Shown one piece after another: positions 6,806 through 58,433 of a stretch of 64,000 bases of DNA (positions within the stretch are counted from its first letter, which is position 1; each line of letters begins with the position of its first letter). The translations under genes and the position numbers were made by a program. The DNA comes from Octopus vulgaris (lineage: Eukaryota): assembly GCA_951406725.2 (NCBI GenBank), contig OX597825.1:64728001-64792000 (forward strand), given 5' to 3'. Under the pieces are notes generated by a model that was given only the letters and a program-made list of their open reading frames with translations, ran no database searches and was not told the DNA's origin.

Positions 6806-6908
6806 AGCAATAAAGGGTTTAGCAACTAGTTGCCTTACCACATACCGAATTTAGAAATAGCAGTCAAAGAGTTATAGCTATTTCTTCTACTAAAGGGAGA
6901 TCTCAGTA

Positions 6909-6966
<58 letters not shown>

Positions 6967-7029
6967 CATGTATATATATATATGTATATACATATATGTA
7001 TATATATATACATATATGTATATATATAT

Positions 7030-7084
<55 letters not shown>

Positions 7085-7085
7085 C

Positions 7086-7119
<34 letters not shown>

Positions 7120-7154
7120 GTGTATGTATATATATACATATATATTTATATATG

Positions 7155-7191
<37 letters not shown>

Positions 7192-7192
7192 G

Positions 7193-7233
<41 letters not shown>

Positions 7234-7366
7234 ATATATGCATATACATATATACATATATACATATATATATATATATACATATATACATATATGTATA
7301 TATATATATATATATGCATATATATACATATATACATATATATATATATGCATATACATATATACA

Positions 7367-7420
<54 letters not shown>

Positions 7421-7438
7421 TATACATATATACATATA
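6592..7438. repeat. (TA)n/(TACA)n microsatellite block, interrupted at about 6805-6910
   Basis: Directly visible. Confidence 0.95.
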
Positions 7439-8489
7439 TTTGCCTTTGATCGATGATACTGTCATCAACTTTGATCTCTAAATGCGACGTCTATCATTCG
7501 CTTTTTCAAACATCCTTCTTTCCTCTCTCCCTCCCTTCCCCTCTCTCTCTCTCTCTTAGATATCTCTGTACGTCTATATGTATATGTTTATATGTTAGCG
7601 TTTGGGCAGACATAGTTTTAAAAGCACTCAAACACATAGGCTCCTACTTGTATACACATACAAAGATATACATGTCTAGGCATTACGCGCGTGTGTGTGT
7701 ATGTGTGTCTGTATGTGTGTGTTCGTGATATCCAAGCCACACGTCCACACATTCACACCAGACAAGCAGATAAGTTCATGTTCACAATAGGTACACTAAT
7801 TTTACCTATAAAGAAAAAGGAGAAAAATTCCGCCTCTGTGGTTACTGAACTATAGAATATTTAGTATTGATTATAGTTCTTAGAGCTAATTATAATGATA
7901 TGCAAATATATACATATTGGACATTTATTTATGTTGCTGATGTATCTACACGTACTATATACTTAAGTTTTGCAGTCGCTTACAGAGGTTTATAGGTAAT
8001 ATCTCAGAAGTACTAAGGCTACGTTAAAATTATGTATATTCCATCATACATATGCGCGTCGACAGACACTCCTACACAGTCAAACATATACACGCTACAC
8101 GCATATGTATGTAAAAAATAATAATATTCAGACTTTTTTTTTTACTATTGTCTTGTAAATCAAAGGGAATAGTATCACATTATATTTTAACTTCAAATGC
8201 AATTTAACAAGAAAAACGATTTTTTTTTTTTCTTTTTTTATCAAAACGGAAGTAAAACTATATCATTTACATTTTCCTTTCACGGTATGATCATCATCAT
8301 CACAATCATTAATCTCATTAACTTTGTAATTATCACCCTTGTCCTCATTAAAATCATCATCGTCACAAGCATTTTTATCTTCATCATGCCGAGTATTAAT
8401 AACATTATTATCATTCTTACCAAGATTGGTGTCGCCATAGTCGCTGTTTTCACTGTCGTCATAATTATCGTCATCGCCATCATTAATAA

Positions 8490-22574: not shown

Positions 22575-24002
22575 GTGTCATTGTGTTAGTTCAAGTGGCG
22601 AAAGCATTCCCATATATTCTCACAAATACATGAATACCTATGCAATTAAATTCACGAAGACACGGTAAAATCTATCAGTGCATGCATTTTACATACATTA
22701 ACACACACACAGAACACGCACAAACGCATTTATGCACCTACTTAAACACCGAACGCACGCACACACGTATATACACATATATAACCACTTACTGATACTT
22801 AAATACTTACATACAGTTACATCCGCTTGTCTAACATGTATCTAATCATGTATTTCTTATGTATATTAAAGTACAGATAGGCATAAGTAAGTATGCCTTT
22901 ATTACATGCACACATACATGTATGCCTGTCTGTTTTTGTGTTTGGTGGATTGTCTGTCGCGAATCTAAGCACTAGAATCCTTATTTAAAAATGTCAACTA
23001 CTTAATCAGTAATGGCTGACAAGAACTGTACTGTTAGCTATTGCTATGGCATTGTATTTGAGAATTAAGCTATCGGAAAAGATAGGTCTTAAATATACAA
23101 AATATAGAAGCTATAAAACATTGATTATATGATACATCGAAGGATATTTAGCTGTTCTATTACATAAAATTTTTCCAAAAATACAAAAGAAGTGTTGACA
23201 TCGCGCGAATGGTTGGAATAACAAATCGACTTGGATCCAAGCAGTCATTCGCATATGACCGAAAATCATGACTCTTAGAAAGATAGAGAAACTGCCTTAT
23301 GTATTGCTAAGTGGTATGTTATATACATGCATGTATGTGTGTGTAGTTGTGTGTGTGTGAGTATCTGATATAAGGTTTGTGCATGTATATGCTATTTATA
23401 TATCGAAACTTGAAAAAGATGCACGCGTACGGGTGTAATGTGTACGCATGAATTTATCCTAGTGAGTTATCGTATTTTGATGTATGTAAACCATGATGCA
23501 TGTAAAGCGTGGGGAAGAAGGAAAAGTTATGTAAATCACGCAACAAAAAAAACATATCGAATAAATAAAATAAAGGTAATAAAATTCTAAAATAGATACA
23601 AAAAAACCCAAAATAAAACAGAAAAGCCACGCCAATAAAGAGTCATACGTTGAAGAGACATTTTGGTAAACATCCAAAATGCTAATGTAACTGCAGCTTA
23701 CACATTGTCAATATTGATTACATAGCATTGATGTATTCCTGTAGAAGAGAATCTCAGAGAAAGCAAAAGACAAGGACAGAATTGATGGGAAAGTAGCAAA
23801 GGAATAATTGATTAGTGTAAACTACAAGATGGCCCTTGACTACATTTTCTTCCTTTAATATGCCAACAGCACGCTGCCTGCAGACATTTTGAGTGACAGT
23901 ATACATGTATGGGGTACATACATAGAATTTCTTCTTTATGCAAGAATATAAATATAAATTTGTGCGTGTGTAAATGTATGGATATATATATATATATGAA
24001 AA

Positions 24003-24125
24003 AATAAGTCAAAATAGAAAATGCTAAAATAATTTTATAAAAAAACATTTCAGTACCGGTTTCAGTCATTTTGAGACCTTTTCAACTGTAACGATTAAAT
24101 AATTAAATTTAGAAAAATTAAAAGA
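24003..24125 (-). mobile_element. Solo end fragment of the 45836-46525 fold-back family, including its hammerhead (24051-24088)
   Basis: Near-identical to 45836-45955 (aagtcaaaatagaaaatgctaaaataattttata...cagtaccggtttc.gtcattttgagaccttttcaactg). Flanked by (TA)n. Confidence 0.9.
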
Positions 24126-24296
24126 ATTATATATATATATATATATAGAAAAGGATAACTAAAAAACAAGTGGTACCCAGCGTTACCCGGGTCTATACAC
24201 TGTATTATAAAAAGTTATATACATATATGATCACATGCGTATCGTTGGCGATGTTCTTTCTCCGTCTTCCCTTCCTTGGACCTTTCCTTTTTCTTT

Positions 24297-24331
24297 GTTT
24301 CTGAAGAAGAGCTCTGTTCGAAACGTTAAAT
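24297..24331 (+). ncRNA. Minimal type-I hammerhead ribozyme motif in a repeat spanning about 24240-24380 (related to 18890-19060)
   Basis: gttt CTGAAGA a GAGC tct GTTC GAAA CG TT aaat. The core is canonical, stem II has one G-U pair, and stem III is palindromic AACGTT. The downstream cctgagcg is shared with the 18986 copy. Confidence 0.65.
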
Positions 24332-24594
24332 CCTCCTTTCTTTCCTCTCCTGAGCGTCCAGTAACACTATACTTTGCTAAATGCCTACTACCGTGCCAAA
24401 TCACACTCTGAGTTTTGGAAAATTACTTGGTACAAAACTCTAGGCACTCGAGTGGCTCCTACAGCAATCTCAGTGAATATAAAATATTACATGTCCTTTA
24501 CGTGGTGATCTACTTCTCTTGTTTCTAAAATGAAACATACTAACACTCATATGACTATATATAGATGCATTCCAAGTCTGGTTTGTTTATTCCT

Positions 24595-45776: not shown

Positions 45777-45781
45777 CATAC

Positions 45782-45835
<54 letters not shown>

Positions 45836-45880
45836 AAGTCAAAAATAGAAAATGCTAAAATAATTTTATAGTGAACATTT

Positions 45881-45918
45881 CAGTACCGGTTTCGGTCATT
45901 TTGAGACCTTTTCAACTG
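45881..45918 (-). ncRNA. Type-I hammerhead ribozyme motif, U3-A8 core variant (left arm)
   Basis: Exact reverse complement of 46443-46480. Confidence 0.7.
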
Positions 45919-46442
45919 TAACGATTAAATAATTAAATTTAGAAAAATTAGAAGAAAAGTTTTTTTAAAAGAATATTTCTATGGTAGTGTTCAGATTTAA
46001 GTGGCATTCTGCCTTTCTCTGACTCCCTTGTTTGCACTTGTGTGTCGGAGGTCGTTGTGAGTTCTTGGAAGGGTAGTAGAGGAAGAAGGCTGGTGGGGAA
46101 AGGGGGATGGGAGAATCTGGGAGTGCCCTGATGGTCGTATTTTGAATGGTCAGTGGCGGCTGGCAGTCTCAGTTCAATTCAGGAGAACTGAGACTGCCAG
46201 CCGCCACTGACCATTCAAAATACGACCATCAGGGCACTCCCAGATTCTCCCATCCCCCTTTCCCCACCAGCCTTCTTCCTCTACTCACCCTTCCAAGAAC
46301 TCACAACGACCTCCGACACACAAGTGCAAACAAGGGAGTCAGAGAAAGACAGAATGCCACTTAAATCTGAACACTACTATAGAAATATTCTTTTAAAAAA
46401 ACTTTTCTTCTAATTTTTCTAAATTTAATTATTTAATCGTTA

Positions 46443-46480
46443 CAGTTGAAAAGGTCTCAAAATGACCGAAACCGGTACTG
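46443..46480 (+). ncRNA. Type-I hammerhead ribozyme motif, U3-A8 core variant (right arm)
   Basis: CAG TTGAAAA GGTC tcaaaat GACC GAAA C CG G TA CTG. Stem I is CAG/CTG, the core is 7 nt, stem II is GGTC/GACC, and stem III is palindromic ACCGGT. Predicted cut after GUA at 46477. Confidence 0.7.
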
Positions 46481-46563
46481 AAATGTTCACTATAAAATTA
46501 TTTTAGCATTTTCTATTTTTGACTTGTTTTTTCATATATATCAACTCGTGTGTTCCTTTTCAC

Positions 46564-46608
<45 letters not shown>

Positions 46609-49106
46609 CACATGCACATATGTACACATGTATTGCTTTCTAGCCTTCTCCATTCTGTTTTCTCTCGATATCGAAAACCGCTTTATAATCACCAACAATG
46701 TGCTGAAATGGCGATATTCTAACAACCTCAATGAACGCATAAATTGTCTTTTTACTAGGCTTATTTATTTAACAGGTGAAGTGGATGTAAAATAATTTCG
46801 TTGCATTTCTAAGCCTCTTTCCACTCCAACTGACTCTCTCTCCCTTTTTCGTGTTTCTCTATTTCTATCTTTCAGCCTGTCTGTTTTTCTGTCTCTGTCT
46901 CTCTCACAACAACAAATTTCACTAAAACATCTATTTGTATTAGAGCACGAACAAAATAACATTTTTCATGTCAAGTGATTTCCTATAGTTATTTATACAT
47001 GCAAATAATAATAATAATAATAATGCTAATAATAATAATATTGTTAACGAAAATACCAGAAACAGTAGCAACAACACGAACAGCAACAAGGAACAATAAG
47101 GCTGACAAAAACCTTTAAGTTTAGATAGAACCGCATGGAATTAATTGAATGCGCCAAGAGAAAATGGAAAGCAAATATCATTACAATGAACAATTATTCG
47201 ATATTCCAACAATAACAAAAACAACACGTATAACAACTACAACAACAAAACCAAAGACAAACAAGAACGGTTGTAGTATGAGGAATAAGTAGAACGCGAA
47301 TAATAATATTAATAATGTTGATGAAAATAATAATAATAATAATGATAATAATGGCTAGATCAGAAAACAGTTTTGCTTCCTCTTTTCATATAAATTCTAA
47401 AGCAAATCTTAAATAAATAAGCTTTGTTCGTATTAAGGTTCATGCTTGAATTAATGGGCTAATTTTATATAAGATGGAATATATTTAAATATATTATTCC
47501 ATCACATATGATGTGATTGTTTTACATAGTGAGCAAAAAGGTGAATGTATGTGAGTGTCTGTGTGTATTTGTGTATGTGTTTGCGTGTTTCTGTTTGTGT
47601 GTGTGTAGTGGTAGAGAGAAAGATAAACGCTGAATGGAAAATCAGAAACAGAGACAGATAAATTGGCAAACAAAAACACGTATGCATGTATGTATGTATG
47701 TATGTATGCATGTATTATATGTACGTATGAATTTTTCACGTGTACGTACACGTATTATCTGAGCGTGTGTATGTGGACTTGTGTGTACTTATTTCTGATA
47801 AACGAAAATTGATTATGTTCCTTCGTTCAATAAAAATATAATTCGATGAAATATGAAGTTTATCGTTCGTATTTATGGTGAGTGATATTTGTAGTGTCTT
47901 AACTGAATCGTATATTATGGGTAAACATGAAACTCACAGCAAACAGGTGTTAATATATAAATATGTCTGTAAGCGTATGTGTTTCTGAGCGTGTATGAGA
48001 CAGAGAGAGACAGAGAGAGAGAGTGAGAGAAGGGGACTAGAGGTCCAGGTGTTGCAATTATGGTTGCAAAATTATTATTTCCATTCACTAAATGATTGAC
48101 ATGTATTCTTGACTTGAGTAAAACATCTTTTCGTGTTAATCAGTGAGCACTTCGACATCTGATATATATTAAACCATGCACCTTTACATGTGATGTCGAT
48201 TTCATGAATGAAGTGAACGCTAAAACACAGCACAAAGAGTTGATCACTACAGCCAAATCATCTGTGCAGGTGACTCAACAAGTAGTGAAGTATCACTCAT
48301 TATTGCCTACGGCAGGAAAGCCCTCGATATATACGTATACATTTATGTATATCCATGAGTAGGCGTATAAGATAATATAACGGCATATGAATGCAGACAT
48401 TTGCATATATACATACACAAAACAGAAATGCTCAAAGGATAGGATATCAGACCTCGATTTTGCAAATTCGGAAGGCATTTTACACATGACATTTGACAAA
48501 TGTTCATTTAAATTATAAATTATTTGAACCTTAGATACTAAAATAAGCTTGAATATATATCGTAACACCCCCCAAAAAATCCAAATATATCGTAATACCC
48601 AAAGAAAGCTAATAGTGCTGATGTTGACAAAGCCCTTACCCATTAATGGTTAGTGTCGTCTGGCTTAAAATCAGAAGTACAAGGGTTAAGATGAGCATGG
48701 CAGCTGAAATTGCTCTAGGTGGCTATGGTTGATAAGAGAGTGCAAATGAAATATTTACATTGGTAAGTACTACTTTAGTCTTCACTGCCCAACTCAGGCG
48801 ATACAGTCTGGGAACTGAATCATTTCTGATACGGAGATACAGAAACATTTCTGGGATTGCGATGGATGCAGAAGACCTTGCAAAATTTCTGAGTAGCGCT
48901 TGCTGTTTCTGTGAAAGACAAAGCAGCTCTGATGCTTAGTTCAACATTCACCCCACCTCTACACACACACACCACACAAATACACACAGAGATAAATATT
49001 TATATGTATGTGTATATATATATATATATCATAATAAATAATATATATAAACACACACGCATAGACATACACACACACACTCACACACACACACACACAC
49101 ACACAC

Positions 49107-57770: not shown

Positions 57771-58433
<663 letters not shown>

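Follow-up and report, generated by a model that had tools for sequence, protein, structure and literature searches.

Structure of the palindromic locus

The window, as we call the whole 64,000-nucleotide stretch of Octopus vulgaris DNA that was analysed, contains a long and nearly perfect palindrome whose left arm lies at 45836-46175 (340 nt) and whose right arm lies at 46185-46525 (341 nt) when only the exact mirror part is counted. MAFFT alignment of one arm with the other gave two substitutions and one 1-nt indel, which bears out the original prediction, made from the letters alone, of two arms of about 340 bp that differ at three positions and flank a 9-nt spacer. The spacer (46176-46184, minus strand) is itself element sequence that continues the left arm; 9 of its 9 nucleotides are explained by that arm, which is tailless, and none by the tailed right arm. 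The 3 nt at the junction (46185-46187) are common to both arms and form a microhomology.

The left arm as a whole (45830-46175, sense on the minus strand) is a tailless, 5'-truncated copy of the 3' UTR/pseudo-LTR (pLTR) end of a Penelope-like element (PLE; below), and at its outer end a run of A's (45830-45835) departs from the family end. The right arm (46185-46541, sense on the plus strand) is a 5'-truncated copy of the same 3' end up to an internal TA run, and it alone is followed by a 24-nt PLE tail (46542-46565, plus strand). The element had been described as lying between (TA)n tracts; this is correct on the left, where the target tract at 45781-45829 is the inner end of a longer TA/CA array, but on the right the nearest TA run (46534-46541) is element sequence rather than target, and the true (TA)n begins only near 46567 (46567-46604). 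Because both the short right TA run and the 24-nt tail belong to the element, the insertion is asymmetric and about 730 bp long, and the 690 bp first proposed is too small. It lies inside (TA)n, which masks any target-site duplication. The three differences over 340 bp amount to about 0.4% per arm, a figure that reverse transcription errors or gene conversion could shift and that agrees with a recent insertion.

The claim that the element has no coding capacity held up, as there is no ORF of ≥90 aa within the arms and a tblastn search of the 64-kb window with the parental reverse transcriptase-endonuclease (RT-EN) protein gave no match. The solo copy of the end that had also been noted was found at 24001-24126 (minus strand), between TA runs; it is a separate, older, tailless 3'-end fragment of the same family (93.7% identity over 127 nt), whose hammerhead (below) has a single change, at the pair that closes helix II. 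A repeat search of the whole window was dominated by microsatellites, and (TA)n/(CATA)n arrays longer than 500 nt are present at 6907-7439 and 57775-58424.

The parent, a probable Neptune-type PLE

A search of the 2.8-Gb genome (227 contigs) with the arm returned 1295 candidates, and the 40 that were scored gave 43 matches at 98-100% identity. In other copies the inner end of the arm continues through the spacer sequence into a ~820-nt 3' UTR and from there into a 784-codon frame with RVT_1 and GIY-YIG domains, which substantiates the predicted PLE origin. For example, in the ORF of locus L047 RVT_1 scored above its cut-off (E 5.5e-9) and GIY-YIG just under its own (E 3.9e-4, 21.1 bits with a cut-off of 22.6), and many of the 509 homologues are annotated with both domains. 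The full unit, as defined by head-to-tail copies (locus L134), is 4,386 bp long; both arms of the palindrome are the last ~350 nt of this element, and in the head-to-tail tandems the tail leads into ORF1, whose ATG is 36 nt further on. The arms are ~99% identical to the ends of coding copies. Over the first 373 residues the best 110 scored matches are 94-100% identical and many lie in an open 784-codon frame, values that point to a young parent family that is probably still mobile.

Exact motif counts across the whole genome gave at least 804 tailless and at least 556 tailed ends, with counts of 0 for the reversed-motif controls. The junction 30-mer of this palindrome has a single match in the 2.8-Gb genome, which means that there has been no spread of the 690-bp unit as such, and the proposed non-autonomous status is contradicted by this unique junction and by fold points that vary among copies (below). 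The locus is almost certainly a 5'-truncated insertion of an autonomous Neptune-type PLE and, as such, is an ordinary truncated insertion of a known kind.

The parent has the RT and C-terminal GIY-YIG domains of EN+ PLEs, a pLTR that derives from head-to-tail tandems, an inverted truncated copy with a one-sided tail and a hammerhead motif in the pLTR, but it has two overlapping ORFs where EN+ PLEs are described as having one. Two cysteines lie inside its GIY-YIG domain and two histidines after it, and the RT-EN linker carries C-x4-C-x2-C followed by a 24-residue spacer, which, compared by eye, resembles the Neptune rows and not the short Nematis rows in Fig. S2 of PMC8557442. These motifs would place the parent in the Neptune clade, from which it differs in its 411-aa ORF1 (no Pfam match above cut-off) and in an overlapping RT-EN ORF in the −1 frame. 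Recently active Penelope-like families have been described in an octopus, and the accessible text of that report (PMC13282606) mentions neither palindromes nor hammerheads. Animal-type PLE RT-EN genes (L308-L324, and named homologues in bivalve-symbiont assemblies) also occur in contigs that are filed under bacterial MAGs; these are likely host DNA binned with symbionts.

Hammerhead motifs in the arms

Each arm carries one outward-reading hammerhead motif, with its core at 46446 on the plus strand and at 45915 on the minus strand, and the motif scan put the predicted cut 48 nt from the arm end, in good accord with the ~45 nt given originally. The plus-strand motif (46443-46480) has its core at 46446-46452, helix II at 46453-46467, helix III at 46471-46476 and its predicted cut after 46477, and the minus-strand motif (45881-45918) has its predicted cut after 45884. 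Both are minimal type I motifs built of a 3-bp inner helix I, a U3 and A8 core (the U3-A8 variant and not C3-G8), a 4-bp helix II with GAAA, and a 6-nt palindromic helix III; the core nucleotides, helices I and II and a palindromic helix III that allows a dimer are all present. A relaxed motif scan of the window found three matches, and the same scan of 20 shuffles found none in any of them. The Rfam HH9 match was sub-threshold on each strand (19.7 bits with a gathering score of 52, E 0.27), and Rfam matches to miRNA families, which were below their gathering scores, proved to be generic hairpin or TA-repeat matches.

The accessible sections of PMC4209133 describe minimal PLE hammerheads as type I motifs with U3-A8 and a small palindromic helix III that needs a dimer, as is the case here, with weak activity and in pairs 100-700 bp apart on opposite strands. 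Weak cleavage, or a need for protein, is reported for similar motifs in the available parts of PMC11167929 and PMC4209133. Two copies of the present motif are predicted to co-fold through the 6-nt palindrome of helix III. In head-to-tail tandems, where the hammerhead would, as a dimer, free unit-length RNA, 88 nt separate the predicted cut from the tail end downstream and 124 nt separate it from the ORF1 ATG.

The palindrome is predicted to fold from either strand into a hairpin of −630 kcal/mol in which the hammerhead is fully paired. A given transcript would contain a single sense motif, base-paired to its complement in the other arm. We therefore predict an inactive ribozyme, and the original suggestion that full pairing would sequester it agrees with the modelled fold. 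Across 97 related loci there are 24 motifs of this type (in 21 of the loci, 23 of the motifs on the coding strand), whose cores are C3-G8 or U3-A8 and whose helix sequences differ. That the architecture is kept while the helices vary suggests that selection has acted on the motif in the PLE lineage and not at this locus, where the hammerhead came along as cargo from the parent.

Another minimal hammerhead motif, unrelated to the first, is present in the window at 24216-24374 (plus strand, core at 24301), about 90 nt from the solo copy. It has a C3-G8 core, an extra base before helix II and a 4-nt palindromic helix III, and the repeat that holds it occurs in 18 of the retrieved loci (some overlapping) at 76-87% identity and is probably the 3' end of another PLE family.

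Census of insertions of the family

Is the arrangement at this locus peculiar to it? We took all 94 tail-motif matches on two contigs (C1 and C2), of 573 in the genome, with ~7 kb of inward sequence for each; 85 of these tails are terminal and 9 run on into an element body. An inverted arm was found within 70 nt of the 5' end for 62 of the 94, and this arm is tailless in 57 of the 62, so a palindrome is the family's usual product. The other five matches represent three insertions that are tailed on both sides (L134, L135 and L141, the exceptions to the one-tail rule), and the remaining 32 of the 94 are solos, tandems and a few complex or out-of-range cases. Seen from the opposite side, 30 tailless ends comprised 8 that are paired, 11 solo and 11 that were not resolved within 1.5 kb.

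Among the 57 pairs with one tail, 28 lie wholly within the 3' UTR, like the present copy. The tailless arm is longer by >20 nt in 24 and the tailed arm in 17, so that 41 pairs differ by >20 nt, in both directions and by up to kilobases. The other 16 are equal within 20 nt, compared with a permutation mean of 3.1 (maximum of 10 in 5000 permutations). Six of these 16 near-equal pairs fold exactly at a short palindromic word and have no loop; of the remaining 10, 4 have a loop that leans to the tailless arm and 6 one that leans to the tailed arm. Copies vary in their fold point, and the sole exact repeat among the 57 is that of L098 and L107, at a 6-nt palindromic word. Apparent extra bases were seen at 26 of the 57 junctions, in part from subfamily mismatch to the eight reference copies. 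Microhomology of ≥2 nt was present in 15 of the 31 junctions that have no extra bases (15% expected); choosing the best of eight references inflates this figure and we give it little weight.

The junction of L156 folds exactly at the 6-nt palindrome of hammerhead helix III, and several other copies end within the motif. Many arms stop ~240-270 nt from the tail end (L083, L098, L103, L104, L107, L109, L111, L119, L122, L125, L144, L146, L161 and L162), a possible truncation hot spot in the 3' UTR.

Origin of the palindrome

The locus is very likely a single recent insertion of a 5'-truncated Neptune-type PLE in which the 3' end is present twice, head to head, a product likely of dual-strand priming. 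The element endonuclease would cut both strands of the (TA)n tract and reverse transcription would be primed on both, with one cDNA initiated at the end of the tail and its partner at the internal TA run, some 24-32 nt inward. Each would extend for about 350 nt and then stop, and their 3' ends would be joined via the 3-nt microhomology; in an alternative ending the tailless cDNA would snap back at the microhomology and then be captured by the tailed cDNA. Fold-back of a tailed cDNA cannot give a loop or longer arm of the tailless kind and fold-back of a tailless cDNA cannot give the tail, so two cDNAs are the simplest account, and since the spacer belongs to the tailless arm we favour two cDNAs joined at the microhomology over one that folds back. 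We consider this two-cDNA step fairly probable.

A comparable outcome is familiar from LINE-1 twin priming, in which a cDNA is primed on each of the target strands and an inversion results when the pair is joined at a microhomology. The inverted segment in LINE-1 derives from another, upstream region of the RNA, whereas here both cDNAs would copy the same 3' end and the product is thus a palindrome.

Within PLEs, inverted 5'-truncated copies with a one-sided tail are a described layout, and the parts of PMC8557442 and PMC3846280 accessible to us give the canonical EN+ unit as a pLTR, an adjacent inverted 5'-truncated copy and a one-sided tail of 30-40 bp. The present insertion resembles it in its head-to-head 3' ends, one-sided tail and truncation, in the tandems (partial and full) elsewhere in the genome, in its microsatellite target and in the junction palindromes; it differs in that both halves are truncated inside the 3' UTR and nothing coding is left, and its tail measures 24 nt beyond the internal TA run, or 33 nt with the run included. 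In vitro, according to the accessible text of PMC11167929, a Poseidon PLE cleaves each of the two strands, extends them, and initiates at two positions that set the limits of the tail, although Poseidon belongs to another clade than this Neptune-type family.

Three census results count against our explanation: the excess of near-equal arms is not given by a pure two-cDNA model, which needs an added step (for these pairs both cDNAs might stop at the same RNA end, or one might snap back and the other capture it), solo arms are common (11 of the 30 tailless ends), and 26 of the 57 junctions show the apparent extra bases that stem in part from subfamily mismatch. The near-equal pairs instead suit a mechanism in which one strand, or an antisense RNA, folds back and primes itself to make the mirror arm, and in which the tail comes with resolution of the intermediate, as the available portion of PMC3846280 proposes for bdelloid Penelopes. 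The loopless folds at short palindromes in 6 of the 16 near-equal pairs fit this mechanism as well, and in the present copy the fold has a native stem of 3 bp and a loop of 9 nt. We nevertheless think self-priming unlikely, since most pairs (41 of 57) differ in arm length by >20 nt and do so in both directions, three insertions are tailed on both sides, and the loop at the present locus comes from the tailless arm, so that the tail needs a second template.

Among other readings, the palindrome might be a 690-bp unit that multiplies as such, non-autonomous and akin to a retrozyme or MITE. Its lack of an ORF and its hammerhead motifs would then be expected, 28 of the 57 inverted pairs are likewise non-coding, and the accessible portion of bioRxiv 10.64898/2026.07.22.740005 derives retrozymes from PLE pLTRs. 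Non-LTR retrozymes (as described in the accessible part of that preprint; see also PMC7229834) are indeed non-coding, hammerhead-bearing and PLE-derived, but they are direct tandem arrays of short units, and here we found no tandem array of short units and one inverted pair; with its genomically unique junction, arms ~99% identical to the ends of coding copies, and fold points that vary such that only one exact repeat pair occurs among 57, a unit element is hardly credible. An equally poor candidate is an artefact, either of assembly or as a chimera that folds back. Assembly is difficult for a long palindrome with microsatellites on both sides, and among the listed pieces of four public runs examined over 46140-46900, all short contigs of a high-copy repeat that carry no weight either way, none bridges the centre or the join of tail, (TA)n and flank. 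However, the flanks of the palindrome are not mirror images, the tail is one-sided, each arm has a rare letter of its own (at 46349 in the right arm, in 1 of 141 counted copies, and at 45983 in the left arm, in 0 of 119), and the same one-tail layout is present at 57 other loci. Finally, the strong hairpin predicted from either strand (above) might suggest a functional host dsRNA gene that serves as an ADAR or Dicer substrate; this is very improbable, because the arms are young (<1% apart), the locus is one of many such insertions, and Pfam recognised no host exon in the 145 of 449 ORFs tested from the window plus 10 kb on either side, a search in which short exons would be missed. An A>G difference at 46349 that was considered as RNA editing was discarded, as the letter is the family letter and is present in DNA runs too, and low right-flank cover in a presumed-RNA run was rejected as a sign of transcription, for which it is no evidence.

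The ORF1/ORF2 overlap of the parent element

In the parental 4,386-bp unit the RT-EN ORF overlaps ORF1 in the −1 frame, and its first Met comes after a conserved N-terminal motif. All 45 junction matches in the family's loci (some of which overlap) have the same T6A stretch. Among the closest elements with a visible junction, 8 of 8 have T TTT TT(A/G) in ORF1 phase at the −1 overlap; these eight are this family (L134:5082-5142 on contig C2), a further family of this genome and six contigs from public data that are 40-46% identical (the other heptamer loci being L325, L228-L231, L235 and L308). ORF1 stops 12-21 codons after the heptamer and the −1 frame opens 0-12 codons before it, and about 0.02 such heptamer sites are expected by chance per overlap. 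Among six of the eight, ORF1 identity is 18-27%. The heptamer is absent or different in three more distant elements, and most other loci have no scorable junction. At L326:1933-4956 one extra (seventh) T in the slippery run fuses ORF1 and ORF2 into a 1008-codon frame. With pseudoknot-free folding, no downstream stimulatory stem-loop was found in this family (0 to −2.9 kcal/mol), and relatives have modest hairpins (−2.9 to −17.4 kcal/mol). ORF1 gave no Pfam match above cut-off and no usable Atlas match.

From these sequence comparisons, a programmed −1 frameshift appears a reasonably likely means by which RT-EN is made. A splice acceptor at the ORF1/ORF2 junction is the second choice: six of the eight junctions do read T6-AG, but two have no AG and the heptamer phase is kept in all eight, so we rank it below frameshifting. 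The two-ORF or frameshift layout of Neptune elements is not obviously new. According to the legend to Fig. 1 of PMC8557442, a frameshift can set ORF1 apart in some PLE type, and the accessible parts of PMC12602865 and PMC5408684 describe, respectively, two ORFs in a fish Neptune and Neptune-like esterases; in the openly available literature we found no publication that names this heptamer in Neptune elements.

Implications

Taken by itself this locus has little weight, being one of many, and the value of the analysis lies mostly in the family-wide census and the conserved −1 overlap. We rate it an even chance that each insertion of a Neptune element involves two rounds of copying of the RNA, one primed by either cut strand and with two fixed points of initiation, and that the RT-endonuclease of these elements is translated through a conserved −1 ribosomal frameshift, of the gag-pol type, at U UUU UUA. 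If this is true, fossil insertions such as these are an in vivo test of the PLE mechanism, and the description "single ORF" fails for this subclade. Each insertion records the side of the tail, the lengths of the arms and the way in which the centre was joined, and many copies keep the 784-codon RT-EN frame; such records bear on the origin of PLE inverted repeats, which PMC8557442 and PMC11167929 leave open in their accessible parts. This family also supplies near-perfect long hairpins in large number, a point of relevance should they be edited or diced by the host. The −1 overlap, being conserved, indicates the likely route of expression of the enzyme and which protein is suited to the biochemistry of this clade.
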